64,000 nucleotides of DNA from Alphaproteobacteria bacterium (GTDB lineage Bacteria > Pseudomonadota > Alphaproteobacteria > UBA9219), in assembly GCA_013286365.1 (NCBI GenBank), contig JABDFY010000006.1:1881-65880 (forward strand). Reading direction: 5' to 3'. Positions within the stretch are counted from its first letter, which is position 1, and every line of letters starts with the position of its first letter. This document shows positions 9,437 to 41,874 of this stretch, piece after piece. The notes under the pieces were generated by a model, which worked only from the letters and a program-made list of their open reading frames with translations, ran no database searches and was not told where the DNA came from. The translations under genes were made by a program, and so were the position numbers.

Positions 9437-9511
9437 GGGTGCGTAGCTCAGCGGCAGAGCATTACCTTCACACGGTAGGGGTCACAGGTTCAATCCCTGT
9501 CGCACCCACCA
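9437..9511 (+). tRNA. tRNA-Val (anticodon CAC), CCA encoded
   Basis: Cloverleaf folded by hand: acceptor GGGTGCG/CGCACCC, D arm GCTC-AGCGGCA-GAGC, anticodon arm TTACC-TTCACAC-GGTAG (anticodon CAC at 9469-9471), T arm ACAGG-TTCAATC-CCTGT, then ACCA. Confidence 0.95.
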
Positions 9512-10049
9512 CGCTTTTCAATGGGTTAGCTTTTTGAAGGAGGCTAAAAATTATTACAGATATCATAATCGGGTTCGAGTGTACGCCTTGGACAGCTGGA
9601 AGGGCTTCATCTAAGTCCGTCATTCACGTCAATCCTTGGCTAGGAGAGGCGCGCAAACTTCCGTCTAAACAATCTTTCCAGAGCCAGCTATTTATCTTTG
9701 ATAAAATAGACATTTTTATGAGCCTAAATAGAAATTAGTGTTATAATTCTAGAGACTAAACTATCAATTCGGTGAGCATGGACTTTGCCACGTAGGATGT
9801 AATATATCCATTCCGACTTCCCGACAGCCTCTTTCGGCTGAATAATTCCAATGGGCTTTACTATCTGTTTCTGGCTGTGATTAAGCTTTATATCTTATAT
9901 AAATCGCGGAAAAACGAGGCTAGAATTTACTATTATGGTTAAAATCGGAGGTATTGTTAACGCACCTCTGCCCCAATCATCATATTTGATTGTGAAAATA
10001 ATAACACCTTCTATACAGTATAAAAATATTCAAATTCGGAGGCTTATAT

Positions 10050-12017
10050 ATGCCTACAAGCGATGACGACAATAATGACGGTTGGTTTCGAAGAAATATT
10101 CTTCGGCATCTCAAACTCACAAATTTCACATACGTGGCCTTAGGTGCTTTCACACTTTTCAGCGTGGGAGATAGTATTCGTCGATGGGGTACAACACCTA
10201 ACTATAGTTATACCGAGCTAATGAACAGCGCCACAAGAAATCAGATTGATGATATAGTTATCGATGGTCGAAAAATTACTGGCTGGACAAGAAGCGGGCA
10301 GAAATTTGTCTCTACCCTTCCTGAGATTGCTGACGGCGGGGCTGTACTTAATAATTTTGTATCCCATGGCGTAAATGTAAAAAATGATTGGAACCTATTT
10401 GGCGCAATTTTCGACGCGCTCGAAATTGGCAGAACACAGGTTATTTTACTAGCACTGTGGCCGACTTACAGTGTCGGAAAATACATTGCGCGCAGCATTG
10501 GTAAAGCGAAGGGATTAGCAACACAAATAGGTAGTATCGATGATGATAGCGACGCCACTGTTGTTGGCCGCTTAAAAAGATTTAAGCGCAAGCGCTTTGA
10601 CCCAAAAGTTACATTTGATGACATCGTTGGGATTGATTCCGCTAAGGAAGAAATCATGGACGTCGTCGACATGCTCAAAAATCCTCAAAAGTACCGAGAT
10701 ATTGAAAAACAACCTCAAAGCAGCAAGAGCCTTCTTCCCAAGGGTATTCTCCTTGTTGGTCCGCCTGGTTGCGGAAAAACCCTCATCGCCCGCGCTATGG
10801 CGAATGAGGCTGGCGTCGCATTCTTTAGCATTAACGGCTCTGAATTTGATAGCAAATGGGTCGGTGAAGGCGCTGCGCGTGTACGCGAGGTATTTCAGAC
10901 CGCTAGGCGCAACAAACCTGCCATTATTTTTATTGACGAAATCGACGTCCTTGCCAGGGCCCGCAGCAATCGAGAAGATCGTTGGAGCATCCAAACGCTT
11001 ACTCAATTTCTTAAAGAAATTGACGGCTTCGAGTCTGAAGAAGGCATTACCCTTATCGGCGCCACAAACCGCCCTGATACACTAGATCCCGCGATACTTC
11101 GCCCCGGTCGCTTCAGCCGACATATAGAAGTTCCTCTGCCGGATTCTGCCGGTCGTAAAGCCCTTGCAGAATTTTATCTTGCAAAAAAACGAGTGTCAGA
11201 AGATGTCGACGCCAATGCCATCGCTAATGAAACCCCCGGTTTTTCACCAGCAGCAATTGAGAATCTCATTAACGAAGCTGCAATTCTAGCGATACGTAGT
11301 AAGCAGAAAGAAATACGTGCGGTGGATATATCTGAAGCTTATGACCGTAGTGTACGCGGGCTCGAACGAAAAGGTCTTGTTCAAACAGCTGCACAGATGC
11401 GACTTACGCGTTGGCACGAAGCTGGTCACGCTATACTTAAACTCTGTATTCCTGGTGCCACACCTCTTTCACGGGTTAGCGATATACCACGCGGAAACTC
11501 TCTAGGCGTAACCATTGGCCACATCGAAGGTGACAGTGCCGTTTACACACGCGATGAGATCGTTGCCGAAATGGTCGTTGCCAATGGTGGGCGAGAAGCT
11601 GAGAAAATAGCTACGTCTAATCCAGATTTTGTGTCGTCCGGCGCCAGTAGCGACATCGCCACTGTTACACGTATGGGTTACAGCATCGTCGCCGAACTTG
11701 GTATGGACCCTGCCATTGGCAATGTTCGTCTCAATCCCCTGCCCAACGGCGATGAAATTTTTACCGGTGGAGTATCTGAAGAAACGAACAGACTCGTTGT
11801 AAGTCGTGTGATGCAGTGGGCAAATGCAGCTAATGAATGTGCACGCAATGCCTTAAATGACAACATCAAGCCCCTGACAGCTTTAGCTGATGCACTAGAA
11901 AAACAAAGGACGCTTTCTGCCAAAGAAATACGAGAGATTGTCGACAAAGCTGGTGGGCTCAAATTAACCGAGCGGGTTCCGCAGGCACCGCAGATTCAAA
12001 CGTTAAAGGCTGCATAG
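10050..12017 (+). CDS. FtsH-like membrane AAA+ / M41 zinc metalloprotease, divergent paralog
   Basis: Two predicted TM segments flank an FtsH_ext-like region. Motifs present: Walker A GPPGCGKT, Walker B IIFIDEID, pore-loop-like [28 protein letters not shown], zinc site HEAGHAI, and downstream GGREAE and GASSDI. RBS GGAGG lies upstream. Confidence 0.8.
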
Positions 12018-12107
12018 AATCTGGCTGTCCGAGGATCAAATGATCGAGTTAACTGAGGCCTCTATATCTCAAATTGTTTCAGCCTGCGAGGGTCAGGTCC
12101 GATAGGA

Positions 12108-13235
12108 TCACGGTGTCAGCGCAATCCGCCCTCCTTCTGTAACGCCTCCGCAGAGGAAAATTGTGATCGGATGGGGATCGTTTGGATTCGTCCCGGGAGA
12201 ACTATTCCAAGCATAGTACAAAGCAGTTTGCACACGCCCTTCACGCGCAAGATCGCGAAAATCTTCCATCATGTGTTGGATCATCGGAATACGCAGGCTA
12301 TCATCCATGGGGCAAGAATTTGTCGGATTAATAACCCCCCATTCAGTTATCCAGCAGGGCTTGCTACCTTTCGGACCCGCTGACCCGCATTCAGTAACAA
12401 CATTATTACTCAAATTGATATCGACTTGCTGAAAACTACCTCCAGGGTAAAAATGGATGCCGTAACCGTCGACTAAATTGTCGAGCCCGTTTGCCCGCAA
12501 AAATTGGAGGGTTGCGTTGATCGCGACACCGTCTTCCATCTTCCCTGTTAGAACTCTCGCTCTTCCGGCCGGTGAGAGACCTGCGGAAATGATCGGTGTG
12601 TTCAGGTTCAGTCGCGAATGATCGCGAACATCCTTAAGAGCTGAAAGTATCTTCAAATATTGAAGAAATCCTTTGGCAATTTTTTGCCCTTCAGGGTCGT
12701 GGTAAAGATCTTCAAGGCTAAAAATCTTGCCTTCGCCAGGTAAGGGAAATTCTCCGTTGAATGCCGACCAATTGATCTCATTACCAAGCTCAATGCTGGC
12801 TAAAACCACTCCCTTCGCATCAAGTTGCGAGAGTAGAGTCTGGAAATAACTACGAGACATAGCCGGATCGGCATATGATAGCGGGTAGCTGGGATACATA
12901 TGGCTGTCGGGCGCATAGGGCGGTCGTACTGGGGTGTCGGGCAGGTACTGCGGATCGACGATAAGATTGATCTTAATGCCCTGCGCATAAAGCTGTGAAG
13001 CATATCCAGCGAGATCAGCAATATCTTTCCCAACAGGAAAACGAACAATGTGGACGCCTGCAGCTTTAAGTTGACTGATCACAGTTTGCCGGTCGGCAGA
13101 ACTAGCACGCGTTGCGTTCGGCACGTTCACTCCGGTTAATAACGTTTCGGCGTGTGCTGAGGCGATTAAATTAGACATCAGTAATGCGATAAGCAAAAAA
13201 GCAGAATAAATAGTGAGGTGAGCTGATTTTTTCAT
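12108..13235 (-). CDS. Secreted TIM-barrel glycoside-hydrolase-like protein (clan GH-A / GH5-like motifs), paralog 1
   Basis: Signal peptide MKKSAHLTIYSAFLLIALLMSNLIASAHA. ELGNEINW is an acid/base-like NE motif and CWITEWG is nucleophile-like, about 150 aa downstream. Start moved to ATG 13235; the track extends to 13295 and would overlap the upstream paralog. Confidence 0.5.
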   Translation of the reverse strand: MKKSAHLTIYSAFLLIALLMSNLIASAHAETLLTGVNVPNATRASSADRQTVISQLKAAGVHIVRFPVGKDIADLAGYASQLYAQGIKINLIVDPQYLPDTPVRPPYAPDSHMYPSYPLSYADPAMSRSYFQTLLSQLDAKGVVLASIELGNEINWSAFNGEFPLPGEGKIFSLEDLYHDPEGQKIAKGFLQYLKILSALKDVRDHSRLNLNTPIISAGLSPAGRARVLTGKMEDGVAINATLQFLRANGLDNLVDGYGIHFYPGGSFQQVDINLSNNVVTECGSAGPKGSKPCWITEWGVINPTNSCPMDDSLRIPMIQHMMEDFRDLAREGRVQTALYYAWNSSPGTNPNDPHPITIFLCGGVTEGGRIALTP

Positions 13236-13266
13236 AGGGTATACCTTGATTGTTGCGAGCAATTCG

Positions 13267-14412
13267 TCACATTGGCGAGATTGCCAAACGGCCACTTTCT
13301 GTCAACGCGCCACAGAGAAAAGCGCCAAACCGATCTTCCTTGGGCGCATGAATTTGACCTTGCCATGTGTAATAAAATATTGCTTTCAATCGCCCCTGTT
13401 GAGCGAATTGCGCAAAATCATCTCGCACTTCACGAACCAATGTTGTTCGATACGAATCATCGACCGGACAGGAATTTCCGGCAGCGCCAAAACCCCATTC
13501 CGTTAGCCAGCATGGCTTCCCAGACGAACTTCCGGCTGGGCGGCATTCGGTGAAAACAATGTTCTCGAGGCGTGACAAGCGGTTGGCGGCACCTTGGTTT
13601 GTGCCAGGCCCATTTCCAGGTGGATAGGTGTGAACGCCATAATAATCAACCAGATGATCAAGCCCGTTAACGCGAAGAAATTCTAGCGTCGCGTTGATGG
13701 CAACGCCGTCAACGCGTTTATCCCAGGAAGGGCCCGGCGGGTTATTGCCAATTGCAAGTCCGGCCGAAATAATCGGGGTATGCTGGTTCAGTTTTGAATG
13801 GTCCCGAATGTCTTTTAATACAGCAAGGCTTTTCATGTATTGGGTGAAACCCCTGGCAATCTGTTGTCCCTCAGGATCATGATACAGATCATCCAGTCCG
13901 AATATTTTTCCCTTACCGGGAAGAGGAAAATCGGCATTGGCCGTGAAATTGATCTCGTTCCCGAGCTCAAACCCAGCGAGCACAATTCCCTTGCTTTCAA
14001 GCTTTCCCAGCATGCTTTGAAAATAGGCTCTGAAGCTATCTGGATCAGACGTTGAAAGCGGAGGATTTCGCCAAAGGCCCATACCCGGTGGCGGTGTGGG
14101 AGCTTTCGTTCCTTTTGGCCATTGGAGATTGACAAGCCAGTCAATTTTGATCCCATGAGCGTAGACGCGCTCTGCAAAATTGATTCCCTTTTCATCCCCA
14201 TTTCTGTCAACATCAATGCCCATACGAATAACGCGTACACCCGCAGCTTGCATAGCGTTTAGAATGGATTCCTGCTCGTCGGGTGTCAGCTTATCCGGCG
14301 CATTCAATAAATTGACACCAACCACAACATTATCGGCATGGGCCAAAATTGGCATCAAAACCATGGCCAACAGTAAAGCCAAAAAAACTACAGGGCTGGT
14401 AAGTCTGTTCAT
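13267..14412 (-). CDS. Secreted TIM-barrel glycoside-hydrolase-like protein, paralog 2
   Basis: Signal peptide MNRLTSPVVFLALLLAMVLMPILAHA, with ELGNEINF and CWLTEWG. It aligns along its full length with the 12108-13235 product, for example FPLPGKGKIFGLDDLYHDPEGQQIARGF against FPLPGEGKIFSLEDLYHDPEGQKIAKGF. Confidence 0.5.
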   Translation of the reverse strand: MNRLTSPVVFLALLLAMVLMPILAHADNVVVGVNLLNAPDKLTPDEQESILNAMQAAGVRVIRMGIDVDRNGDEKGINFAERVYAHGIKIDWLVNLQWPKGTKAPTPPPGMGLWRNPPLSTSDPDSFRAYFQSMLGKLESKGIVLAGFELGNEINFTANADFPLPGKGKIFGLDDLYHDPEGQQIARGFTQYMKSLAVLKDIRDHSKLNQHTPIISAGLAIGNNPPGPSWDKRVDGVAINATLEFLRVNGLDHLVDYYGVHTYPPGNGPGTNQGAANRLSRLENIVFTECRPAGSSSGKPCWLTEWGFGAAGNSCPVDDSYRTTLVREVRDDFAQFAQQGRLKAIFYYTWQGQIHAPKEDRFGAFLCGALTESGRLAISPM

Positions 14413-14547
14413 AGGGAGAGGTTAAGTAGGACTCAAAACTTATTTAGATTATTACACTGTAATAAAATCTATGACAAACAATGGAATACTTGGGTTATTT
14501 GCATGAAACGGTGGTATCCAATGCGTTGATTGTGTTGACTCGAGGCG

Positions 14548-14594
14548 CCTTCACACGGTAGGGGTCACAGGTTCAATCCCTGTCGCACCCACCA
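14548..14594 (+). repeat. Perfect 47-bp copy of the tRNA-Val 3-prime end (anticodon loop to CCA); attR-like
   Basis: Base-for-base identical to 9465-9511. It is followed by a 10-bp-stem inverted repeat, TTTCAATGAT-ttagtg-ATCATTGAAA. Confidence 0.95.
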
Positions 14595-14695
14595 TTTCAA
14601 TGATTTAGTGATCATTGAAATGATTGAGAGAGCTACTTAAACCGAGTAGAAAACTTTACTGAAGTGTACCTGCTTTGGGTAGAAGGCTATCGCGT

Positions 14696-14986
14696 ATGAG
14701 TTATTCTGAAATCGATCCAGTTATTACCGCCTGGGCGCAGAGAAACTCACTGCATGTTTATACTCAATACCAAGAGAGTGAAGTTCGCTCAATCGATATT
14801 GTAAGTAAAATTGGCGAACGTTTTCAACTTTGGATTGATCGTCCATTTTCTGGACTAGTCGATATTCACGCATGGGATTACAGAAAAACAAAAAAAGACT
14901 GGCAGACACCAATCGACAAACTTAATGACGCCCTTGAAGAGGCCTTGCAAACTGTCGAATCTTGGATGAAAAAGAAACCGGCTTAG
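14696..14986 (+). CDS. Hypothetical protein (96 aa)
   Basis: ORF with ATG 14696 preceded by GAAGG. No recognisable motif. Confidence 0.35.
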   Translation: MSYSEIDPVITAWAQRNSLHVYTQYQESEVRSIDIVSKIGERFQLWIDRPFSGLVDIHAWDYRKTKKDWQTPIDKLNDALEEALQTVESWMKKKPA

Positions 14987-15184
14987 TTGATCCATCCTCT
15001 GGCACGCTGGGCGACAACTTCAGCCAACCTACAAACAACGCCCGCCAATGACTTAAAGTAACATTATGCGTTATGCCCTTGCTCTGCTGAGCTCGGGATT
15101 AATTGTCTTAAGAACAAAGCGACTTGATTAGTTGGGCATGGACTGATTAAGTCTATTCATAAATTGCCATATGGAGATTCTTTT

Positions 15185-18100
15185 ATGAAACAGTGGGTTG
15201 CAACTATCGCCTTTTGTCTTTTGCTTTCTCCTGTTTTTGCAGCGAATACGTCGCAACTGCCGGTTACAGCGAACAAGGTCGAAGGGCCAGTGAAAGGGCA
15301 ATTAACCGATCCAATCAAATTGAATGTTGAGAACCCCACTATTCTTCCGCGCGTGACGAACAAAGACGATCTGTCGGTAACTTTTTGTACCAATATGTAT
15401 TTCTCCAATGGGTTCTGGAGCATTCGCTCGTATTGCTCATCACCAGACCGTCAATTGCATTTAGCTGGGCGCCGGCAATTGACCGGCATTCATATGACGC
15501 CAGAAGTTGAAGGACAATGGCGTTGGGAGAGTGATTACAATTTAGTTTTCACACCTAAAAATACTTGGACTCCAGCGCAAGATTACAAAATACAATTCGA
15601 TCCGTCGATATTTCCGGACAATGTAAAGCTGGTGGATGGGAATTACCATTTTGCAGCCGAGACGTTAAACGCACACATCTCCAATATGGAGTTTTTTCAA
15701 GACCCTAACGATGTAGAAAAGCGTGGCGTTAACACAGTAATTACATTCAACACACCCGTTGATGCGCAGGTTGTGAAGGATCATATAAAATTTGTTTTAG
15801 ATGAATTGACGGATAACAACAATCCAACCCAACGCAAAACTATTTCCTCGGCTGAGAATTTACCGTTTGATTTAATAATGAATGATGATGGTACCGAAGC
15901 TACAATTGCAACCGCAATTAAGTCTCTACCAGACAAAGAACGGTTTCTGAAAGCGACGATACAACCCGGTTTAAAGGCTATTGCAGGCGGGGAGCCATTG
16001 GCAGTTGGCAAACCTGGCGAATTGGAACAGCGTGTGCGGATTCCCAGCCGTTATGATTATGCCTCGATCAGCCAGATTGAGCTGCATATGATTAAGAATG
16101 AACATTACGTACCGGAACAAATTCTGATCGTTCAAAGTAATGTACCCATCAGCAATGATGAGCTGACCAAGCATTTAAAAATCTATCAACTGCCCGCTGA
16201 TAAACCTTCTATCGCTAAAGACGAAAAGCCGATCAAGAATTATGCCTGGTCGAGCGCAACCGAAGTCACCGATGATATGTTGGCCCAAGCACCAGAGGTT
16301 AAATTCTCACTTAACCCTACGGCGGATAATGCCGCAACAATGCACAGCATTAAGCTCGATATTGAACCCGGCCATTGGTTGTATGTACGCGTTAGCAAAG
16401 GCCTAACGACAAAGGGCGATTATATTTTGGCGGATAACCACAATGACACCGTCAAAGCCCCTCAATATAGCAAAGAAGTAAAGATCCTGAGCGACGGTGG
16501 GTTACTCAGTTTAAGCGGCGACAAGAAAATATCGATCTACTCCCTAGGCGCGCAGAAGTTGCATTTTGAGATCGAGCGCGTTGAGAACGACGATATTAAT
16601 CATTTGGCCAGTCAAACAAGAGGGAATTTTGAGAATCCTTCTTTCGACAATTATAATTTTTCGTCTCACAATATTGCCGAAAATTTTAGCCAAGATGTTG
16701 ATGTACCATCAACCGACCTGCGCAAGCCACAATTTTTGGCATTCGACTTCGCGCCCTATTTGTCAAAAACTTCGGTCGACAGAAAACTCGATTATACCAG
16801 CGATCCGAAAGGCCACGGGCTATTTTTTCTGACCATTCAGGCGATGGCGAAGGACGATAAAGGTAAAGATACCATCGTCTCGGCTGACCATCGGTTTATA
16901 CTAGTATCGGATTTGGGTTTTGTGGTGAAGACATCCGCCAATGGCGCGCATGATGTGTTCGTGCAGTCGATCAAATCCGGAAAACCCGTTTCGAGTGCAA
17001 AGGTTGAAGTGCTGGGTTTAAACGGATTACCTATTGCTACCGTTGAGACGGACGGCAAAGGTCATGCCGTCCTGCCGAGTTTGCAGGGACTGACTGACGA
17101 CAAGCAACCCATAGCTTATGTCGTACGCGATGGCGACGATCTCGCTTTCATGTCCTATACGGCTTATGACCGCAAATTGAATTATTCTCAGTTTGATACC
17201 GAAGGACTAGAAGGCTCATCAGAGGATTTGCACGCTTATATGTTTTCCGACCGCGGCATCTATCGGCCAGGCGAAGAAGGACATATCGGAATCGTGGTCA
17301 AGCAAGGCGATTGGGCGAAGGATTTAAGCGGTGTGCCATTACAGCTGGAGGTTACTAATCCGCGCGGACAAGTCATCGATCAGCCGGTTATTAAATTAAA
17401 TGCTCAGGGTTTGGCTGAATATCATTTTGTAACGCAAGATACCTCACCGACGGGCACCTATAATTTTCGTCTGTCTATCGAGAAGGAAGAACAAACAGAT
17501 AATGATAATGCAGACGAAAGCGACAATGAAGAGAGCCGGCATGAAGGGCATAGAGGGCACCGGCAGGATGTATCACATCAAGAAATCAAAACAAGCCAAT
17601 TGGGTAGTACATCCGTACACGTTGAAGAATTTTTGCCAGATACTCTGAAGATTACGTCCCAGTTCAATAAACCAATTTCCAAGGGCTGGCTGTCACCGGA
17701 CGGACTCCGCGCCACAGTTAGTTTGCAGCATTTGTACGGCGCTCCTGCCGTTGATCATCGCATCAAGGCAAGCCTGAATATTGCACCCGACAGTTTCATC
17801 TTCAAAGAGTTTCCTGATTATCAATTCTTCGATCCGCTGAAACCCGCAAAAAACTTTGATCAGCCGATTGGCGAGGCACAGACCGACGCGGAAGGCAAGG
17901 CTTCATTCAACCTTAGCCTTACACAGTTTGGCACTTCGACGTATCGCCTGACGTTCCAAAGCGAAGGCTTTGCCCAAGACTCTGGACGGAGTGTGCACAC
18001 CGAGAATTCTGTTTTGATATCATCGCTGCCCTATGTCATCGGTATGAAAATCGATGGAAATTTAGGTTACATTAACAAATCCGAAAAACGCATCGTGCAG

Positions 18101-21148: not shown

Positions 21149-21157
21149 GCAAAGTCC

Positions 21158-23491: not shown

Positions 23492-23614
23492 AGGCCACTG
23501 CTTTTCACAAGAAGCACGTTACACTCTTATGCAAAATGTGTGAAAGCCTGAAAAGTTTGCTTTTTCACTTGTATTCTTAGGTAGCTAATACATTGGTTCC
23601 AGAGGCACTCAAAA

Positions 23615-23660
23615 CCTTCGCGCGGTAGAGGTTACAGGTTAGATCCCTGTCGCGCCACCA
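23615..23660 (+). repeat. Degenerate copy of the tRNA-Val 3-prime end
   Basis: ccttcgcgcggtagaggttacaggttagatccctgtcgcgccacca differs from the 47-bp core at about 8 positions, including one deletion, by my manual alignment. It is followed by tttttttgaagga, which resembles the flank of the intact tRNA. Confidence 0.7.
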
Positions 23661-23868
23661 TTTTTTTGAAGGAACCAGATAATCACCTTGTTATTTAGCT
23701 CACCTATCCACTATTATCTGACGACGTACATATATGGATATGCCAAGCATAGAGCAGGGCTATAATGCTTTATGATTGTTTCACCGGATTGACATAAAAA
23801 CTCTACCCCGCACAATTTCCAGATGCTAGATTTCTAAGAATAGCCATTCACTTAATTGGACAAAAACC

Positions 23869-24150
23869 ATGCGCTCACCTGAAAAACTTGAAAAATTACT
23901 GCATGAAGTTCTATTAGCGGCGGGGATCAAGGTTGCTTCGATCCGGGTTGTCGAAAAACCCAACCCGAGAATTACTTTTGAACTTTATTATCAGCCGGAA
24001 GGTTTTTTTGCCGATAGAAAAAACAAAGGTTCCATGGAAGACAAAGTGCTCAATTCTCTTCTAGACTACGATAAAGCAAACCCCGGTAATGAATGGAGCC
24101 TTTGGCCAGAAGATACCGAATATCACTATGTATTCACTCGCGGCCCATGA
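23869..24150 (+). CDS. Hypothetical protein (93 aa)
   Basis: ORF only; no motif recognised. Confidence 0.3.
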   Translation: MRSPEKLEKLLHEVLLAAGIKVASIRVVEKPNPRITFELYYQPEGFFADRKNKGSMEDKVLNSLLDYDKANPGNEWSLWPEDTEYHYVFTRGP

Positions 24151-24382
24151 GAAACCTAAAAGCTCTTGGCAAATCCAGCGCAACCTGCTTCAGCACCGCT
24201 ACGGTCTGCTCAGCTATGAACCTTTTCTTCTACAGGACACCTCGTCTCTTAGCTTGTTTTTCTTTTCCTCTGACTTCATATGATCATTAAGATGCCCCCA
24301 AAGAAGCGGGTCGTCCTTTCGGTGATTGAAGCTTTGGCATAACAGCAGAAATGAGAAATATATTCTCCAAAAGAGCAACCTC

Positions 24383-25015
24383 ATGCGCACATTATATCAA
24401 ATAATCTTTGGCGTATTTTTGACAGCGACCTTTACACTGCTATCATTGAACGTGCAGGCACAAGAATGTAAGTTAAATCAACACCCCGTCATTCCCGATT
24501 GCGTGAAAGGTTTCGGTTGCAAACCTGAAACAGGGACATTGATTTGCATTCAGGGGGGAAAACCTTTGGGGGAGTGGAAAATGGTGCAGGGTAAGCATAT
24601 TGGGTATGAAAAAACGTATGATTACATGGGAGGTTACACCGAACAAACCGTTGACGAAAACGGTAAGATTGACGGTTTATCCAAACGATACTCGGCGCAG
24701 GGCATGATGCTTTCTGAGCGAGAATACAGTCATGATCAATTGAACGGCAAATCACATGACTATTTTTCAGATGGTAAACCCAAAAGTGTTTCGTGGTGGG
24801 AGCACGGCACGCGGAAATTTGACGTTGATTACACACAGACAGGTGACATTATAAATCTTATGTGCGGTAAACAGCACTATATGGAGGAAGATATAGCTCT
24901 CTGCGGCTTTGGCGGTAAACCCGCCACAAACACCTTGACCGTAATACTCAATGGAACGAAAGACGTGACCTATCTGAACGGCGCGCTTATCAGTACGGTT
25001 TATCATCCGAAGTAA
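24383..25015 (+). CDS. Secreted MORN-variant / YwqK-like repeat protein (tentative)
   Basis: Signal peptide MRTLYQIIFGVFLTATFTLLSLNVQA from ATG 24383. Contains G-x-x-G...Y...nG-type repeats, for example DENGKIDGLSKRYSAQGMMLSEREYSHDQLNGKSHDYFSDGKPK. Confidence 0.4.
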   Translation: MRTLYQIIFGVFLTATFTLLSLNVQAQECKLNQHPVIPDCVKGFGCKPETGTLICIQGGKPLGEWKMVQGKHIGYEKTYDYMGGYTEQTVDENGKIDGLSKRYSAQGMMLSEREYSHDQLNGKSHDYFSDGKPKSVSWWEHGTRKFDVDYTQTGDIINLMCGKQHYMEEDIALCGFGGKPATNTLTVILNGTKDVTYLNGALISTVYHPK

Positions 25016-25120
25016 TGATCGTCCACGTGCATGTAGCGCATCGACATAATCTGCGGAAGAGGTGGGGACAACATAAATGAGTGGGATTAACCCTCGATTA
25101 ATGCCCCTTATGCTAGGAAA

Positions 25121-26026
25121 TTGTTAATCAAGAAATGGGCTTATCGCGATATCCCCACCGTTGCTCTGTCCTTATCGCCAAATGCAGAAATGGTCTCAAA
25201 TTGGAAGGACCCGGGTATGGAAAAAATAAAAATCTATTCTCCCGGACAGATAGGCGGTGCTTCATTTTGGGCAGGCCCTCTTGCGGGCATATATTTGCTT
25301 AAAAAGAATTTCGACGCTCTCGGCAACAAGATATGGGCAAAGAAAACCATTATTTGGGGAACTATTTATACCGCGGGCATGTTTCTTCTCATTTTTCTGG
25401 TTCCCAAGGAAGCAGGCCTACCCTTGGAACTAGTTAACGTAAACATTGCCTGGCAGCTTGCACGTCGATATCAAATGACGAAAAAAGATATTCAATGTTC
25501 TGAACAATATGGATTTCAGTCTAATTGGAAAGTTTTCTGGACCGTGGTTGTTTCCGCAATTGTGACGATAGCCATAATTGCCGTGATAGTCATATTTACC
25601 CCAGCGTCGCTAAGTATCATAAAACAGGATGCACAGCGCGGCGATGCGGAGTCGCAATACGAGCTTGGCATGTTCTATTATGAAGGGGATATGGGGCTGA
25701 AGGAAGACAAGACCGAAGCCGTTAAATGGTTACGCAAATCCGCCGATCAAGGAATGCCTGAAGCGCAGCATAATCTTGGTGTCGCTTATCATGAAGGTTC
25801 TGGCGGATTACCGCAAGATGAGGCAGAAGCCTTTAAATGGTGGCGCAAAGCAGCCGATCAAGGTTTTGCCGAATCCCAGTATAATCTCGGAATAATCTAC
25901 AGTTCGGGTGTCATCGTTAAACCGGACATACAAGAGGCCAAAAAATGGTTCCAGAAAGCTGCCGACCAAGGGGACGAAGATGCAAAAGAGGAATTGAAAA
26001 AACTTCAAGTGCGAAAAGCCGACTAG
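25121..26026 (+). CDS. Membrane-anchored Sel1-like (SLR/TPR-type) repeat protein
   Basis: Hydrophobic N-terminal half, then three to four Sel1 repeats: GDAESQYELGMFYYEG...AVKWLRKSADQGMPEAQHNLGVAYHEG...AFKWWRKAADQGFAESQYNLGIIY...AKKWFQKAADQGDEDA. The start is uncertain: TTG 25121, ATG 25190 or ATG 25217. Confidence 0.75.
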   Translation: MLIKKWAYRDIPTVALSLSPNAEMVSNWKDPGMEKIKIYSPGQIGGASFWAGPLAGIYLLKKNFDALGNKIWAKKTIIWGTIYTAGMFLLIFLVPKEAGLPLELVNVNIAWQLARRYQMTKKDIQCSEQYGFQSNWKVFWTVVVSAIVTIAIIAVIVIFTPASLSIIKQDAQRGDAESQYELGMFYYEGDMGLKEDKTEAVKWLRKSADQGMPEAQHNLGVAYHEGSGGLPQDEAEAFKWWRKAADQGFAESQYNLGIIYSSGVIVKPDIQEAKKWFQKAADQGDEDAKEELKKLQVRKAD

Positions 26027-26188
26027 GGTTGAAGGAAATGAATGGCTTGTGAGCTGCCTCGGTATCCAAGTACTGCAATTCAGCATTTCTTGCATATATA
26101 CATGTCCCATTGGGTACGCTGAAGTTTGCTTTTTTAATAAATCCTCTTTACGTTGCCATCCCCTGCTCATCTATCCATAAAGAAATAT

Positions 26189-26713
26189 ATGCATAGCCAT
26201 AAAACTTTCTTGATTAGTTTTCTTCTTGCCGCAATTGTATTTAATAATATTGCGTTAGCTGCCAATGACCCTGGCGTAAAGGCAGTATTAGACAAGATTG
26301 AGATTGTCCCGGGCGCGTCTCTCGGCGACATTAAGCTGAATGCCACGGAAGCTGATCTTTTGGCGTTAGGCTTTACGCGAGACTCGCTGCGTCTGGCAAA
26401 GGATTACACATATTTTGTTAAACCACCTTTTTTGACCCGTGTGAAAGGCAACAGCGTGGTAGAAATCTGGCTTGAACATATCGGAAGTCTCAGAAATCGT
26501 CTTGTTTACAACGGGCAGACACTTCCTCGAGAACTGTCAGAGTCGTCCATCAGACAATTCTTTCTGGGCTGCCAACGAAAAGATGAATCCGGTGGATATG
26601 AGCTCTATTGTAACCATGCAGAAATCAGGGTGTCGTACTCTTACGGTACAAAGGACTGGTCCCTTGGCGTCCTATCAGATGGCAAGATGATGTTAAATTC
26701 GGAAGCCCCATGA
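26189..26713 (+). CDS. Secreted hypothetical protein
   Basis: Signal peptide MHSHKTFLISFLLAAIVFNNIALA from ATG 26189. No other motif. Confidence 0.4.
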   Translation: MHSHKTFLISFLLAAIVFNNIALAANDPGVKAVLDKIEIVPGASLGDIKLNATEADLLALGFTRDSLRLAKDYTYFVKPPFLTRVKGNSVVEIWLEHIGSLRNRLVYNGQTLPRELSESSIRQFFLGCQRKDESGGYELYCNHAEIRVSYSYGTKDWSLGVLSDGKMMLNSEAP

Positions 26714-27143
26714 CGCATTTGGTTAGATGTCTTGTCGTTTCATTGAAATAAGGATACTGGCCTAGGCGCTGCTTACGAAGCGACACAACACAAACATCGT
26801 TCTGATATCAGCTAAGTCCTGGCTTTCAACGTTGCGTTAGCAACGACTCCGAGGCGGACAAGTGTTGATCGCATAAAGATCGCGATCCACGCGAGCAAGA
26901 GGACGAAGATAAAATTTGGGGCTACTCCATCTAAGGCGGCCTGCTAAGATGGAAAATATGGCAGTCATTGATCCAAAATAATTTCTGGCTCATAGGTTAC
27001 CTTCGTAAGCCTTTGAATTATAAAAATTCAGTTGGGTATAGAGCCTCATATTAACAATTAATATAGTATTAATATATGCATTGGTAAGTTTCAGGCGTCA
27101 GCATCTGCGGTAGTTGCGTCTTTCGTCTGAAAAAGAATTCCTC

Positions 27144-27629
27144 ATGAAAAAATTCTCTTTAATCCTAAGCAACGTTTTGGTGGCAATGTTTCTTGCTTTG
27201 GCGGCCTCGACAGCGCAAGCAACTGAAGCTGAGACACGCGACGCTCTATACGAACTGTCGGCAAAACACTGCATTTATCACTCCAAAGCCACCGTTCAAC
27301 CCGCAGTTCAAGCATTGACGGCTGAAACTTTGCAAATTCTTCCGAAACGCCAAATCGTCTTCTGCCCTAATCCTAAACTTGGCAGTAACCTGGCTGTGGT
27401 TTGGTATGGCGAGCACAAGTCGATTGTTTGGAACCCTGAAGTTCAAGGTGCCGTCGAGCTTTTGGCCAAAAAGCTGGATGAAATGTCGCGCAATGATCAG
27501 TTTCCTCCGGGCGTTGAACCTTGGTATGCCGATGGTACGCAACCCAAACCAGGCACGAATGTTCCTGGTTTTGATTATGCGATAAAGTTCGATTGGCAGG
27601 ATCAACGTGGTTGGTATGATAACGAGTGA
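27144..27629 (+). CDS. Secreted hypothetical protein
   Basis: Signal peptide MKKFSLILSNVLVAMFLALAASTAQA from ATG 27144. Confidence 0.4.
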   Translation: MKKFSLILSNVLVAMFLALAASTAQATEAETRDALYELSAKHCIYHSKATVQPAVQALTAETLQILPKRQIVFCPNPKLGSNLAVVWYGEHKSIVWNPEVQGAVELLAKKLDEMSRNDQFPPGVEPWYADGTQPKPGTNVPGFDYAIKFDWQDQRGWYDNE

Positions 27630-27668
27630 CGGTATTGATTTCTTCCTCATCTTAGCTTGGAGTAAAAC

Positions 27669-28235
27669 ATGAAAAAGTTAGTTCTTTCGACAGTCGGACT
27701 CGTTCTTACCCTATCAAATATTGCGTTTGCTCAAAATATGCAGGAACTGGGTCGAATACCAGTACCACCCGTAACTACGGTTGCCCCACAAGCCCTTACT
27801 ACTGTGTCTACTGGCTTAAGCCTTGCGGATCGCGAAACTCTTAGTGGTGTTGAAACAGCAGCTAATCAATCAGCCGCCGCAGTGCAAGCCGCATGCGGTA
27901 ATTCATCGTTTGTGTTTAATTACAACTGGGCAGCCTATGACCAAGTCGATTACAAGCTAGCTATGGACCCGAACGTCACAAAAATCCAATTCATGAGCCG
28001 CGCGTCCATGTTTTCAAGCGATGTGTCTAAAGCCTTGGTCCAGATTTGTGCCAACCCCGCAGGCAGAACGGCGGTAGCGCAATTGACTGGGGTTAATCTG
28101 ACGCCTCGTCCCGACAACACCAAAGGCTTCGGTATGCATGTCGTCAAAAATGGCACGATATTGGATGCCGATTACTACCCTTTCGGCCGTAGCGGGTCGC
28201 AGGATTTAGCGGCGGATATTAAGAAGGCATTGTAA
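27669..28235 (+). CDS. Secreted hypothetical protein
   Basis: Signal peptide MKKLVLSTVGLVLTLSNIAFA. No other motif. Confidence 0.4.
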   Translation: MKKLVLSTVGLVLTLSNIAFAQNMQELGRIPVPPVTTVAPQALTTVSTGLSLADRETLSGVETAANQSAAAVQAACGNSSFVFNYNWAAYDQVDYKLAMDPNVTKIQFMSRASMFSSDVSKALVQICANPAGRTAVAQLTGVNLTPRPDNTKGFGMHVVKNGTILDADYYPFGRSGSQDLAADIKKAL

Positions 28236-28334
28236 GCCAGCAGTCTCAGGAAAGCTGGTGAAAAACCCTTTTCTTATAAATTCTCAGGCTACTACTCAGA
28301 CTCAACACCATGTAACTGAGAAAATTATTTCCTC

Positions 28335-28589
28335 ATGAAAAACTTAATAATGTTGATCTGTTGCCTTTTAGGCGCCGCCCCCGTTTACGCGGACACGGAT
28401 AATTTTTGTTTGAATGGCTGTCTACAAAAAGGCACGGCCTATGAATTGTGCGAAAAGGATTGTTCCTACGACGCAAACGGGCAGTCGTCTCCGTCATCAA
28501 CTACAATTCAGATTGATGACAAATGCATGGTCGAGTGCGCAAAGCAAGGGTACTTGGACGATCTATGCAAGAAGAAATGTTCGTATTGA
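28335..28589 (+). CDS. Small secreted cysteine-rich protein with duplicated twin-CX3C module
   Basis: Signal peptide MKNLIMLICCLLGAAPVYA, then CLNGC-x9-CEKDC-SY and CMVEC-x9-CKKKC-SY. Confidence 0.5.
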   Translation: MKNLIMLICCLLGAAPVYADTDNFCLNGCLQKGTAYELCEKDCSYDANGQSSPSSTTIQIDDKCMVECAKQGYLDDLCKKKCSY

Positions 28590-28767
28590 TGATGCATGAG
28601 GACTACTCGGTTAACGTTATTGGCCAATCCCCGATATTGAGTCCGTGTACCAATAAGCTTGGCGACCGTGCCACAAAAAAATAGACAATCAAGATGGGGT
28701 AACTTTGGGGCAGCTAAAAAACGTTGAGCAAATTCATTCTTTTCTCTTCAATGTAATAGGCTTTCTT

Positions 28768-28789
28768 TTCAATCCATGTCGCACCACCA
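28768..28789 (+). repeat. Short degenerate copy of the tRNA-Val T-arm/acceptor end plus homologous downstream flank
   Basis: ttcaatccatgtcgcaccacca against ttcaatccctgtcgcacccacca. The following flank, actttttcaaagagttagcaattttagggagg, aligns with the flank of the intact tRNA, cgcttttcaatgggttagctttttgaaggagg. Confidence 0.6.
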
Positions 28790-29055
28790 ACTTTTTCAAA
28801 GAGTTAGCAATTTTAGGGAGGAGCACAGTCTTTGACATTAATAGAATGGTCGCTAGCTCTCATCCACTGCGAGAAGCTCAATAGGGTTTTGGCTAATGAA
28901 GCCAACCAAAGCGCGAAGGTTCAGATCAATCGGAATGCTATAAAAAACAAAGCATGGTGCTTAAAAGAAATTTTGAAGTTTGCATAAAACACGCGGGCCA
29001 CGTATATCAATATCAGTTTTTTATGCGCTAAAATTAACAAATAAATGGCGTTGCC

Positions 29056-30291
29056 ATGACAGATTTGAATGAACTCCTCTTTCAAAGAAACTCTATTCCT
29101 GCAATAAAATTTTCTCGTCGCTTAAGCAGAGCATTGGGACGGGTTGTCGCCGTCATTGATGAGGGCGACCTTCCATATACACCTACCGACTCCTTGTATG
29201 TTGATTTGAATGATGAACAACTTAGGGAAAGAGCTCTTTTTGTTAAAAAACGAATTGAAGAAACATTCCCAAGTGTCATCCAGCAAATTGAAGCTGCGGA
29301 CGCAGAACAGTGGAAAGAATTTTGGGAAAAACGTAAAGGCGTAAAAGTTGGAACAATGCATGGTGCTATCCATGTGTTTCCAACATCTCAAGATACCCAC
29401 CCTCAAATGTTTCGTTTAAAAGGCAGTCATTTTATAAAATTCGGGTTCATACTTGCACCCAGCGGGCAGCATACCCCCATAGTTCAATGGAGAGACCTGA
29501 CGGGTTTAGGTTCAAATCTTGAATATTTTCCCGAAGGTAATTTTATAGCCGATTATAAGTTTATTCATGAAGTCGCTCATCTGCTTCAAGCGTACAATTT
29601 CGGTATTGAAGGCGACGTATATTGGAGGTGGCATAAAGAACGCAACGCGGACATTTTATCCCATGAACAAATGGAAATTAGAGCTGAAGAGATCAAAATC
29701 TCAGAGCCTCAAGACGCTATACGTATTCGAGATACTGTAATGGCGGCTAAACAAGCCAGAGTTTTGAGAAGTTTCTTAAAACCTTATGAAGGGCATATGG
29801 TTTTTTCTGATCTTTATGCAAACGCCAGAATTACATTGCCAGAAGGCATTAATGTTCATCGCCATAACGTGATCGCTCTGGCTAGCTTCATCTCAAATAC
29901 TGAACTTAGGCTACGAACCATTGCTCGGCTTCAGGGAGCCAAGATATTGCAAACATCAAGTGATTTACAGTCGGATATTACAAGGTACAATCGAGCGCAA
30001 GACCTTCAGACTGTTGACCCAGATGTTCGTCCTTTTTTTGCTGTTATTGGGACAAAGATCAGCAAGAACTCAAATGACGATCCTCGAGATTTTCTTCCAG
30101 CTTTAAGAGATGTTGTTACCTCAAGAGAGGCAGACTTACCATTTACACAGCAGCATGGTGAATTAATATTGAAAGCTGTGCGTCGATTTGGCCCTTCACT
30201 GCTTTCTCTTCCGTCTCCCTTCCCTCATCCGCCTCTATATGATAGCCCTAGTTCGGATACGCCCTATCGCCTGTTTAAGCCAGATTGCTAG
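29056..30291 (+). CDS. Hypothetical protein with HExxH motif (possible zinc metallopeptidase/effector)
   Basis: 411 aa with FIHEVAHLLQAYNFGIEGD. No signal peptide, and nothing else I recognise. Confidence 0.3.
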   Translation: MTDLNELLFQRNSIPAIKFSRRLSRALGRVVAVIDEGDLPYTPTDSLYVDLNDEQLRERALFVKKRIEETFPSVIQQIEAADAEQWKEFWEKRKGVKVGTMHGAIHVFPTSQDTHPQMFRLKGSHFIKFGFILAPSGQHTPIVQWRDLTGLGSNLEYFPEGNFIADYKFIHEVAHLLQAYNFGIEGDVYWRWHKERNADILSHEQMEIRAEEIKISEPQDAIRIRDTVMAAKQARVLRSFLKPYEGHMVFSDLYANARITLPEGINVHRHNVIALASFISNTELRLRTIARLQGAKILQTSSDLQSDITRYNRAQDLQTVDPDVRPFFAVIGTKISKNSNDDPRDFLPALRDVVTSREADLPFTQQHGELILKAVRRFGPSLLSLPSPFPHPPLYDSPSSDTPYRLFKPDC

Positions 30292-30461
30292 ATTTAATTT
30301 AGGACTAACGGGTTTCGAAATTTATCAGGATCAATTTATGCGAACACTGCTTCTTATTGTTGTTGGATGCTACTTTCCCTGAAAGTATTAAGAAAAAATA
30401 TAGCATTTAATAATATGTTAAAGTGAGCCAATTTACATGCGTCTGATAATTTAGAGGTAGT

Positions 30462-31115
30462 ATGTCGAGGAGTTATTTACGTCATGATCCTTTGGAGCGT
30501 GCTGCACAAGAGATGGCAGTATTGCTGAATGAAGTGACGGGAGAATGTTTTCCTGACCATGAGTGGGCAGTTTGTTACGATGGCTATAGCTACTCTATTC
30601 AGATGGTGGGGACGGGTGACAAAAGTGATAAATCTTTATCTGAAACCGTTGTGGTAAATATTGGTGGGCAGAACCACCATGTTAAGAAGATATATGCAGA
30701 CAGTGAGAATTCCTCAACTGAAATTAGCCCAGAAGCCTATCACTCGCTAAGACATGCATTTGCATCGCTAGGTATATTAAGCACGGAAGAGAGACGCAGT
30801 CCTTTGACGAAACACCTAGCTAGATTTTTAATTACTGCATTTAAAAGCCACTACCCGAACTTCAGGTTAGGTGTTCGTATAAGTAGTAACATTTCGGACA
30901 TGACAAGAGACATACAGTGGCTCAATGAAAACAAAGGCGGACTGAGACGTTCGGTTTTCAGCCATACTCGTGGGTTTGCTTATCACCGACGAAAAATCAC
31001 TTCACCTATTGCTAGGCGAATTGGTAATAGTAGATATCGCTGGTGGAAAACAAGAAACTTAGTTCGCTCAGTTGTAATTAAGAGGTGGAAATCAGCTTTC
31101 TCTGATCCTAAATAG
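30462..31115 (+). CDS. Hypothetical protein with basic C-terminus
   Basis: 217-aa ORF. The C-terminal tail is R/K-rich: HRRKITSPIARRIGNSRYRWWKTRNLVRSVVIKRWK. Confidence 0.3.
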   Translation: MSRSYLRHDPLERAAQEMAVLLNEVTGECFPDHEWAVCYDGYSYSIQMVGTGDKSDKSLSETVVVNIGGQNHHVKKIYADSENSSTEISPEAYHSLRHAFASLGILSTEERRSPLTKHLARFLITAFKSHYPNFRLGVRISSNISDMTRDIQWLNENKGGLRRSVFSHTRGFAYHRRKITSPIARRIGNSRYRWWKTRNLVRSVVIKRWKSAFSDPK

Positions 31116-31343
31116 CAATCAGGCTATTCCAAGCAAGGGCCATAAGGCTTTCATGTGGAGTGCCGACAAATGCCAGCCCGCACGCAGTAATGCTATTAAT
31201 ACAATGCAAACCATCATCAAGTATCGCAAATTAGCGAGAATTTTGAAAATCTTACGCATGGTCCGCACAATATTAATATCAAAGATCTGGTTTGTTGCTA
31301 TCATTGGACAAAATCAGCTAATTTTCTATCAAGCACCCTGCAA

Positions 31344-32036
31344 TCATTGCTCAAATAAGTTTTTTTCATTAATCGTCACATCCGTCACAAAGATGGTTTG
31401 ACAATCAGGTTTGTTGTCACCCCACTTGGTAAAATAGTTGCCCGAAGGCGTTAGGGCTGTCTTCCATATCCACCCCGGTTGCTCCGACCATTCAACATCT
31501 ACCAGGTAACCTCGCAAGCGGACAATATCGCCGGTATTGGCGCGCCATAATTTCAAGAAAATTTCCATATTTGCTGGGATCAGATGATTGTTCGATTTAA
31601 TGCTGGTATCGCCCATGGCGGCGATATATTCGGGCGGAGTATCCGCGTTCCAATGATATTTGAAGGTATAATACCGGCCGATAGCATGAACGCCGTGATG
31701 ATCGAAACTCATATAGGGGCGGATAATGTTAAGATCGGACATGCTTTTCCAGCCCAGCGCGAAATCGTACGGGATAATATCGCCGAAAAACCCATTCGTA
31801 AAATATTGCCGCTTATGCAACACACGACCAGAAATGTCATAGGTCATGCGAGGTTCAATGAGAAAGGTTCGCGGAAATAGCGCGTATGAGGTGAATGGAA
31901 ATGACGCAAGCTTGGTTTCGGTTTCTATCGGCTCCTGAGAAACAATACCCGGCTTGGCAAATCGAAAAGGATCAAATACGCCCCATAACCAATAGCCTAT
32001 CAAACAAACGACAACTATTTTTACGAAGTAGCGCAT
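31344..32036 (-). CDS. Hypothetical membrane-anchored protein
   Basis: N-terminal TM MRYFVKIVVVCLIGYWLWGVF from ATG 32036. The track ORF starts at GTG 32081. Confidence 0.35.
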   Translation of the reverse strand: MRYFVKIVVVCLIGYWLWGVFDPFRFAKPGIVSQEPIETETKLASFPFTSYALFPRTFLIEPRMTYDISGRVLHKRQYFTNGFFGDIIPYDFALGWKSMSDLNIIRPYMSFDHHGVHAIGRYYTFKYHWNADTPPEYIAAMGDTSIKSNNHLIPANMEIFLKLWRANTGDIVRLRGYLVDVEWSEQPGWIWKTALTPSGNYFTKWGDNKPDCQTIFVTDVTINEKNLFEQ

Positions 32037-32131
32037 AATTGATTTGCCCATTTGCATATCCGGCGGCACTTTAAGGCACAAAAAGACGCGATAAATCTCT
32101 GAATTGCCAGCGCATACTGATTTCCTATGTT

Positions 32132-32174
32132 TTCACACGGTAGATGTCATAGGTTCAATGCCTTTCCATCACCA
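32132..32174 (+). repeat. Degenerate copy of the tRNA-Val 3-prime end plus about 100 bp of flank homologous to the 14595 flank
   Basis: ttcacacggtagatgtcataggttcaatgcctttccatcacca, followed by attcaatgatttagccgccactgaaatgatcgag. Compare tttcaatgatttagtgatcattgaaatgattgag at 14595. Confidence 0.65.
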
Positions 32175-32364
32175 ATTCAATGATTTAGCCGCCACTGAAA
32201 TGATCGAGAATCCTACCTAATGCCGGTAAAGTTTGATAGTAAACTATACATGCCTTAGGCAGAGGTCGCTGAATTCATTAGATCAAACAAAACTCAAACT
32301 GATACTCTTTTAAAGAAAGCAACGCACTTCTCGCAAGAGTTATACTTTCTAGTCTGCCATTTCA

Positions 32365-33564: not shown

Positions 33565-33618
33565 GGTATTCGGCTTCTTGCTATATCAGTCATGTGGATG
33601 AAATAGATCGGGTTCACT

Positions 33619-34893: not shown

Positions 34894-35150
34894 TAAACGA
34901 GTTATATCTTTTGTTCCAAATTTCACAATAAGCTTTCCTGAAAATATCAGTTGCTTTACTTCTTCGTACTCACCTACCAGACATACAATGGAAGTCAAAG
35001 AAAAAACATGGTAAATTTATTTTCAACTAAAAATGAAAAAATAGGCCTATGAGTTCTCAAAATGTACCTGGCTTTGCCGGAAGTCATTGATTAACCGTAC
35101 TTTACCACGTGGCTTAACAATAAAGTTTAAGTGTGTTTCCTTATATACGC

Positions 35151-37964: not shown

Positions 37965-38061
37965 TTTGAGAATTTTTGGCGTAACTCATTGTCTTGGCTT
38001 AGAAATTAATACGTAACCAAACTGGATATCTATGATTAAATTGCCTATATAATTACCTATA

Positions 38062-38078
38062 TTGCATATTTTATGCAA
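38062..38078. promoter_or_regulatory. Perfect 17-bp palindrome (TTGCATA-TTT-TATGCAA) in the divergent intergenic region; candidate operator
   Basis: Read directly. It lies 23 bp upstream of the XRE regulator ATG at 38102 and about 100 bp upstream of the tri-domain gene start at 37964. A direct repeat, cctatat-aatta-cctatat, sits next to it at 38044-38062. Confidence 0.4.
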
Positions 38079-38101
38079 ACCTAGCCCCATGGAACGCTAC
38101 G

Positions 38102-38821: not shown

Positions 38822-38895
38822 AGACGTAGACTTCTTCTTGAAGTGCGGCCTATTGTATTTGGAAAAAGAGCGCAGTTGCTGTTTTTGAGATTATA

Positions 38896-39993: not shown

Positions 39994-40406
39994 GCATCGA
40001 TCCTATTTATCAAATTGAATGCTCAACCTTCAATATATGGAAGCTCTAATTAACTAACATATGCCGAATATTATTGCCACCATATGTGGTTGAGGGCAAG
40101 GCCGCATGTAAGTTAATAGCATGACATTAACCTTGTTGGCTTTGATCCTTTACATGGCGAATGCAGACAACTAAAAAATATCTACTGAGACGCTTCCTTA
40201 ATCTATCAGAGTTATTGCACTTGCTTTACTTGATGCTTTAAGACTTCCGCAAAGGGTCGCTGTAGCTCTCAACTTAGCAAATTATTTAGCGCATATTTTA
40301 ATCAACATTATAGTTTTAACCTGAATTTAGGGAAAAATAGCTAAAATTGCCATCACCCAAAAATATACAGAAATAAATCCGTCTTAAACGCGGAGATCAT
40401 GTCATC

Positions 40407-41228: not shown

Positions 41229-41336
41229 ATAGGCCATAAGCTCAGACGGAAAGATTCTTCTCATAGGATATTGAAAGACATTTCTTGCAACATCCTCTCC
41301 TCTTGAATTGACTCTCGGTGTATTTCGCACACGTTC

Positions 41337-41798: not shown

Positions 41799-41874
41799 AA
41801 AATACCCTTTCGTTTTATATAAACACTACATCCAGTAGACGATATTATTCTTATCGCCTTTCAGATTAATCCGC

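Follow-up and report, generated by a model that had tools for sequence, protein, structure and literature searches.

Displaced tDNA fragments at island ends, anticodon-centred insertion sites and tandem arrays are standard features of genomic islands at tRNA genes (PMC4383910). Arrays of three or more account for 4 of the 3919 islands in Islander, a collection that demands an integrase (PMC4383910). Islands that keep their attachment (att) sites and carry no integration or transfer genes are known as cis-mobilizable elements (CIMEs), and form tandems by accretion (PMC5704250). In Dehalococcoides, many tandem islands lie behind ssrA, some of them without integration modules (PMC3146451). Here we describe a locus in an alphaproteobacterium (contig JABDFY010000006.1 of assembly GCA_013286365.1; the 64,000 nucleotides analyzed are referred to as the window), in which an intact tRNA-Val(CAC) gene is followed by four further copies of its 3′ end. 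We read the region from position 9512 to ~40 kb as a tandem stack of four or five islands that entered one after another at this tRNA gene, and assign this reading a probability of about 0.8.

The tRNA-Val(CAC) gene was identified at 9437-9511 (+ strand) by both ARAGORN and Rfam (tRNA, 65.4 bits), in agreement with the end at 9511 given by a first-pass annotation made from the letters alone. Its last 47 nt (9465-9511, +), the attachment-site core and hereafter copy c1, recur perfectly (47/47) at 14548-14594 (+; c2), as that annotation had reported. Three degenerate copies follow. Copy c3 (23615-23660, +) has 8 differences from tRNA-Val, comprising 7 substitutions and one 1-nt deletion; copy c4 (28768-28789, +) covers the last 23 tRNA positions, from the T loop on, with 1 substitution and 1 deletion; and copy c5 (32132-32174, +) covers 45 positions with ~6 substitutions and 2 deletions. 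The nhmmer profile with which the window was searched covered the core and a 30-nt trailer, and was derived from 36 tRNA-Val junctions of unrelated metagenomic contigs, with the window sequence excluded. This analysis revealed exactly five matches, namely c1 (E = 1.6e-23), c2 (E = 1.9e-21), c3 (E = 1.3e-10), c4 (E = 2.6e-8) and c5 (E = 6.6e-10), with the next best at E = 2.4, and the three degenerate copies were thereby recovered independently at their annotated places. Searches of the 64-kb window with blastn-short, which scored ungapped pieces only, gave E = 5e-4 for c5, 2e-3 for c3 and 7e-3 for c4. All five copies lie on the + strand, c2-c5 are downstream of tRNA-Val, and c2-c5 sit in gaps between genes (14413-14674, 23492-23868, 28590-29055 and 32082-32364, respectively), as annotated. 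The further claim that identity falls with distance from the functional gene does not strictly hold, since c5 is preserved over a greater length than c4.

The copies represent 3′ fragments and not decayed whole genes, because the 5′ 28 nt of the tRNA gave no significant match upstream of any of them (shuffle P = 0.13-0.72). At c2, identity to the tRNA begins with the anticodon loop TTCACAC or 1-2 nt ahead of it. This is a knife-edge boundary at the anticodon region, and the same boundary was found in independent partial copies from other organisms. It falls at one of the two canonical crossover sublocations, the anticodon loop and the T loop. Copy c4 begins at the T loop, and may be either a heavily decayed 47-mer or the product of a T-loop-using integrase. 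The copies bound four segments: E1 (9512-14547; 5.0 kb), enclosed by the perfect 47-nt direct repeats, E2 (14595-23614; 9.0 kb) between c2 and c3, E3 (23661-28767; 5.1 kb), and E4 (28790-32131; 3.3 kb) between c4 and c5.

Comparison with other genomes and contigs (fetched loci carry the prefix L) revealed empty and differently filled versions of the site. The host histidine kinase (HK) has many relatives in metagenome-assembled genomes (65-81% identity); the response regulator (RR) showed at most 65% identity to species representatives among the matches listed, which is paralog-level. In L083 and L084 (HK 73% identity), the gene order proC-TetR-phasin-CsaA-HK-RR-tRNA-Val on the left is the same as in the window and the 3′ half of tRNA-Val is identical. 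A DUF202 gene lies no more than 20 bp after tRNA-Val in these two loci, followed by YceG, holC, pepA and lptFG. In the window, YceG/holC/pepA/lptFG resume at 42682, in synteny with L083, L090, L100 and L102. In L100 and L102, HK-RR-tRNA-Val is followed by 3.1 and 4.2 kb, respectively, of different cargo (methyltransferase and nicotianamine-synthase-like genes in the first, nucleotidyltransferase and kinase-like genes in the second), and then by YceG. In L089, a flagellin gene with 70% identity to the window flagellin lies directly beside the response regulator gene. This arrangement, together with the YceG synteny, indicates that the native right flank probably resumes at ~40.0-40.4 kb; the putative flank (40407-43716) consists of flagellin (40407-41228), two orphan open reading frames (ORFs) and YceG (42682-43716). 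The variable region is thus probably ~30 kb and not 22.7 kb in length, running on to ~40 kb and not ending at 32174 as first annotated, and its outer part (32175-40000) is a probable fifth, older segment (E5).

The repeat runs ~20 nt beyond the end of the tRNA. A motif resembling TTTCAANGNNTTAG follows all five copies at a spacing of 0-5 nt, as TTTCAATGGGTTAG after c1 (9516-9529), TTTCAATGATTTAG after c2 (14595-14608), TTTCAAAGAGTTAG after c4 (28794-28807) and ATTCAATGATTTAG after c5 (32175-32188); the form after c3 is degenerate. When up to 2 mismatches were allowed, this trailer motif was found in the 64 kb only after c1, c2, c4 and c5. It is absent from the L083 empty site. Nine of 10 proviral tRNA-Val ends also lacked it, and because just one of the 10 had a near-match, the motif does not appear to be a general feature of tRNA-Val trailers. 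E5, which is absent from L083, L100 and L102, begins with this element-type motif; its right-hand fragment was not detected. The XRE-type regulator of E5 has a homologue in L109 (803-1423; 27% identity over 208 aa, E = 5e-26) whose gene stops 130 nt short of a partial tRNA-Val copy; in the window, no copy follows the XRE gene.

Both ends of E1 have counterparts elsewhere. The element-side flank after c1 (9512-9570, +), which reads CGCTTTTCAATGGG after the core, contains the trailer motif and a degenerate palindrome, ATTATTACAGCTGTAATAAT (9550-9569). This flank (the motif plus ATTATTACAGnTnTnATAAT) is homologous to the sequence following tRNA-Val or its fragments in L102, L104, L105, L109, L115, L126 and L128, and is absent from the L083 empty site. 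The right-end arm of E1 (ATGGAAT...CCAATGCGTTGATTGTGTTGA; 14478-14547, +) lies just upstream of c2 and reads ...GATTGTGTTGACTCGAGGCG before the core. Arm and core together showed 81-85% identity over 94-115 nt to the partial-copy junctions of L115, L128 and L109. Conservation of the left and right E1 arms extends to L102, L105, L109, L115 and L128. With homology to element ends at both of its own ends, E1 is bounded by sequences typical of a recurrent element family. The flank on the c2 side reads ...CACCCACCATTTCAATGATTTAGTGATC, and the c5 flank resembles it for roughly 100 nt, a likeness judged by eye and unscored.

The same site was found in other metagenomes and in proviruses. A metagenome scan for the tRNA end plus trailer motif returned 40 loci, of which ~28 were full tRNA-Val genes and ~12 were partial copies. 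Proviral contigs were chosen without using the motif, and 7 of their 10 matches were partial copies with the left boundary seen in the metagenomic ones. Partial copies that consist of the 45-47-nt fragment and start at the anticodon loop therefore number at least 12 in metagenomes and 7 in proviruses. In L093 and L101, the partial copy directly adjoins an integrase with Phage_integrase and Arm-DNA-bind_3 domains. A tblastn match to the L093 integrase directly adjoins the partial copy of L118, further matches to it adjoin partial copies in the proviruses L135 and L138, and L116 carries a truncated integrase 3 kb after the tRNA. Neither the junction pattern nor the E1 arm had any match in scans of viral contigs. 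L128 (82-4698) contains two partial tRNA-Val copies 4.5 kb apart and is, judged by its sequence, another tandem of the tRNA-Val site family. The interval between these two copies holds an IS66 TnpB gene and a 400-aa orphan, for which neither a protein family nor a PDB entry was matched.

The first-pass annotation had reported no integrase in the array, and this was borne out. Pfam searches of all ORFs from 9.5 to 48 kb revealed no integrase, excisionase or transfer gene and no integrase remnant, and no recombination or transfer genes were identified by PHROGs and NCBIfam among the orphan ORFs. When the whole window was searched by tblastn with two P4-type integrases (L093 and L101), the best match had E = 0.15. 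Hidden recombinases were considered among the ORFs at 12108-13295, 13267-14412, 31344-32081 and 38896-39993 and the 400-aa ORF of L128, and rejected, as none had such a match in Pfam, PHROGs or NCBIfam. Comparison of the first two and the L128 ORF with PDB gave a best E of 0.19, and the L128 ORF had no similarity to the L093 integrase. The other tRNA gene considered, tRNA-Glu(TTC) at 63024-63099, has no fragments of itself in the window, no adjoining integrase and no long ORF beside it. With neither an integrase nor a remnant of one found, the segments resemble decayed "cis-mobilizable" islands.

Under serial accretion, each incoming circular element would have carried an att site in which the final 45-47 nt of the tRNA, anticodon loop to CCA end, were joined to ~20 nt of trailer with the TTTCAANGNNTTAG motif. 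A P4-type tyrosine integrase, with arm-binding and catalytic domains, would have exchanged strands, most likely in the anticodon loop, given the constant left boundary. The exchange would have rebuilt a working tRNA from the element's copy, and at each insertion the old 3′ end and all that lay behind it would have been displaced downstream. E1, with its perfect repeat and intact arms, would be the newest arrival, and the outer, decayed fragments would be older. The integrase genes may have been lost later, or may never have been carried, with the integrase supplied in trans; what is left would be islands of the cis-mobilizable element type. Serial accretion had already been proposed in the first-pass annotation, and is supported by the empty and refilled sites in relatives, the integrases beside partial copies and the homology of the E1 ends. 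At the DNA level, the island region of the window has only the att regions in common with those relatives. E2-E5 also depart from the core in tetranucleotide usage (z = 5.4, 4.0, 6.0 and 3.5, respectively), and their GC content is 0.42-0.46, compared with 0.47 in the flanking core.

Several observations weigh against this account. L100 and L102 carry the trailer motif and foreign cargo, yet no distal fragment was detected in either. The syntenic relatives are distant (HK ~70-73% identity) and give a right junction of the emptier site that is not base-precise; the 'empty site' accordingly demonstrates variability of the locus and not recent gain. Local alignment, profile search and comparison with L109 revealed neither a sixth fragment nor any other right boundary of E5 in the interval from 32 to 43 kb. 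E1, unlike E2-E5, is not distinct from the core in tetranucleotide usage (z = 1.4). What follows the partial copy in L093, L101 and L118 is identical to what follows full tRNAs in other contigs, and the motif could therefore be partly native trailer and not purely element-borne. The catalyst is unseen, as no integrase, excisionase or transfer gene is present. Finally, the CCC run that precedes the discriminator base is short by one C in c3, c4 and c5 (23652-23660, 28781-28789 and 32166-32174, respectively) and complete in c1 and c2, and a 1-nt loss common to three copies agrees better with a shared origin than with independent decay. In certain islands, the displaced fragments have been described to carry a small deletion 3 bp upstream of the discriminator (PMC4383910).

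A shared origin would follow if the stack had been built elsewhere and had arrived as one composite, or in two steps, with an old composite of E2-E5 entering before E1. Composites arise when integrase-less islands accrete and are excised together with a functional element, and the co-transfer of tandem composites of CIMEs with integrative and conjugative elements (ICEs) is documented (PMC5704250). The common deletion and the likeness of the c2 and c5 flanks would suit such an arrival, and the arm-core-arm junctions in the short metagenomic contigs L109, L115 and L128 show that tandems of the family exist elsewhere. We nevertheless regard it as unlikely: preservation of the repeats ranges from 100% to ~75-80%, which points to at least two ages, the segments differ among themselves in GC content and tetranucleotide usage, and no copy of the composite was present in any fetched locus. 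The conserved ends of E1 bear on a second account, in which the cassettes belong to a living, integrase-less family and tRNA-Val serves as their collecting platform. A P4-type integrase encoded elsewhere in the genome would still insert and excise them at the tRNA-Val of this clade, and the arms would be kept by selection for this reason. Five other loci with different cargo have arms that are 80-95% conserved relative to those of E1, the DNA available for these five (mostly contigs of 1-5 kb) shows no integrase, and the c1 and c2 repeats are perfect. However, integrases may lie just outside such short contigs, the decayed outer repeats would be poor substrates, and no excised-circle or restored-site junction was seen, so that continued movement in trans is also improbable. 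If it were real, tRNA-Val would act as a collector of multi-gene cassettes, an integron analogue built on a tRNA gene.

The two remaining explanations do without integration at the tRNA gene. The first-pass annotation had raised a dispersed family of tRNA-derived repeats, similar to miniature inverted-repeat transposable elements or short interspersed elements, which would be clustered here by chance. The conserved sequence does extend past the tRNA and some copies can form a hairpin, but the hairpin was significant in 7 of 39 junctions only. Moreover, the other 41 kb of the window contain no copy on either strand, all copies lie behind the tRNA and point the same way as it does, and the fragment adjoins integrases elsewhere, which makes this explanation very improbable. 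Slightly less credible still are old local duplications of tRNA-Val that decayed to pseudogenes while unrelated DNA gathered between them. The weak 5′ similarity upstream of c3 (GTAGCT...CAGAG) that might speak for such duplications is not significant (P = 0.13), and the boundary of c2 is sharp at the anticodon region, as it is in independent partial copies elsewhere. Whole-tRNA pseudogenes were accordingly rejected, the 5′ half being not significantly present upstream of any copy.

The trailer has further features of possible functional relevance. TTTCAANGNNTTAG directly after the core matches the consensus of integration host factor (IHF), WATCAANNNNTTR, at 12 of 13 positions, and we take it to be a putative IHF site. 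Paired direct repeats such as GTAAGCnCCATGTAAGC or GGGCTACCATCGGGCTACCAT follow the motif in many related junctions, where arm sites would lie, and the order of core, putative IHF site and arm sites would be lambda-like. Eight loci whose cargo is unrelated (window 9550-9569, L102, L104, L105, L109, L115, L126 and L128) have a 20-nt palindrome, ATTATTACAGCTGTAATAAT or AACATTACAGCTGTAATGTT, ~35-45 nt downstream of the att core, and this palindrome probably serves the element family as a protein-binding site. In L102 (3114-3153), a perfect 16-bp hairpin is formed by CCACCACGCTTTTCAA and TTGAAAAGCGTGGTGG with the loop AGAGTTAG, and at c2 (window 14592-14621) the tRNA 3′ end and the trailer form a 10-bp stem. 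In some junctions, the 5′ strand of such a hairpin is the trailer motif itself. A general hairpin or terminator composed of the tRNA 3′ end, including the CCA end, and the trailer was rejected: striking in L102 and at c2, it was significant in only the 7 of 39 junctions mentioned above. An inverted repeat around the core (CATTGA...TCAATG) was likewise not general. In the proviral contigs L140 and L142, identity between the partial and the full tRNA-Val continues for 37 nt past the tRNA end and takes in a GCAG-AAAA-CTGC stem and the T run behind it. The att identity block of that element family carries the tRNA terminator.

The segments contain 3-7 genes each, on both strands, and their cargo consists of orphans or families of patchy distribution. 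E1 encodes an FtsH-like AAA/M41 protease (10050-12017, +; Pfam) and two GH5-like ORFs with weak matches (12108-13295 and 13267-14412, both -), which overlap by 29 nt. The second has a Pfam GH5 match at E = 0.007, and its homologues carry faint GH5 (PF00150) matches. In PDB, both ORFs matched mannanase (E = 0.5-0.8), and the best match of the first was GlcNAc-binding protein A (E = 0.19). The 381-aa ORF of E1 belongs to a family spread across phyla, with 55% identity to a protein of Bacteroidota (Mucilaginibacter), and its homologues occur in unrelated contexts with no relation to tRNA-Val. E2 comprises a small ORF (14675-14986), a bacterial alpha-2-macroglobulin (15164-21148; Pfam) and a PBP1C-type penicillin-binding protein (21158-23491; Pfam), such that this pair and one small ORF are bounded exactly by c2 and c3. 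E3 contains small orphan ORFs and a Sel1-repeat protein (25121-26026), as identified by Pfam, PHROGs and NCBIfam. A 76-nt direct repeat within the Sel1-repeat gene (25704-25890; 76% identity, spaced 111 nt) reflects the repeat units of the protein. E4 has the lowest GC content (0.42), and its orphan ORFs (29056-30291, 30462-31115, 31153-31401 and 31344-32081, the last on the - strand) gave no family matches. E5 encodes an MFS transporter, a beta-helix protein, a 937-aa fusion of ThiF, nitroreductase and GNAT/N-acyl-synthase domains (35151-37964, -), the XRE-type helix-turn-helix regulator (38102-38821) and a 365-aa orphan. The ThiF fusion adjoins the beta-helix protein and the MFS transporter, and together they resemble a small cluster for biosynthesis or modification.

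The locus offers a precisely bounded example of ~30 kb of accessory genes gained at one tRNA gene in an uncultured alphaproteobacterium. The att-bounded alpha-2-macroglobulin/PBP1C unit suggests a concrete vehicle for moving this pair between genomes. The 45-47-nt tRNA-Val fragment plus the TTTCAANGNNTTAG trailer is a reusable metagenome signature for such islands, and finds those that integrase-dependent finders skip because the integrase has been lost.

As with the islands of Islander and TIGER, which are likewise known in tandem, the tDNA here is intact, the island ends behind it are marked by displaced 3′ fragments in its own orientation, the site is of the class centred on the anticodon loop, and some fragments show a small pre-discriminator deletion. 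Islander requires an integrase for each island, whereas none is present here, and this is the one clear departure of the stack from that collection; compared with its arrays of three or more, the present one has four bounded segments and a probable fifth. An integron cassette array was rejected as a description, since there is no integrase, the segments hold 3-7 genes on both strands and the repeats are tRNA fragments that are not attC-like. Compared with the lambda-type attP, the order of core, putative IHF site and paired direct repeats would be the same, but the motif may lie in a block of identity that the native trailer has in common, or form a hairpin strand. The tandem islands of Dehalococcoides likewise lie behind one small-RNA gene, are bounded by direct repeats of its 3′ end with extra conserved sequence around them, and include integration-less members suggested to be cis-mobilizable. 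They differ in their serine recombinase, tmRNA target and 20 bp repeat, whereas the repeat here is a tRNA fragment of 45-47 nt and the integrases in contigs related to the present site are tyrosine recombinases. The CIMEs of the ICESt1 family in Streptococcus thermophilus (PMC5704250) also keep attL and attR, have no integration or transfer genes and stand in tandem at the 3′ end of the target gene, for which integration, decay and a next integration have been proposed. The flanks of the present segments are of this kind, as perfect 47-nt repeats and conserved arms in E1 and as degenerate repeats in E2-E4, and recombination and transfer genes are absent. Here, however, the host is an uncultured alphaproteobacterium, the target is tRNA-Val, the stack has no functional partner, and intact att sites are confined to E1. 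The stack is a further case of well-known island accretion and reveals no new mechanism; it is mildly unusual in its four bounded segments and probable fifth, in the complete absence of integrases and in the conservation of its arms across differing cargo.

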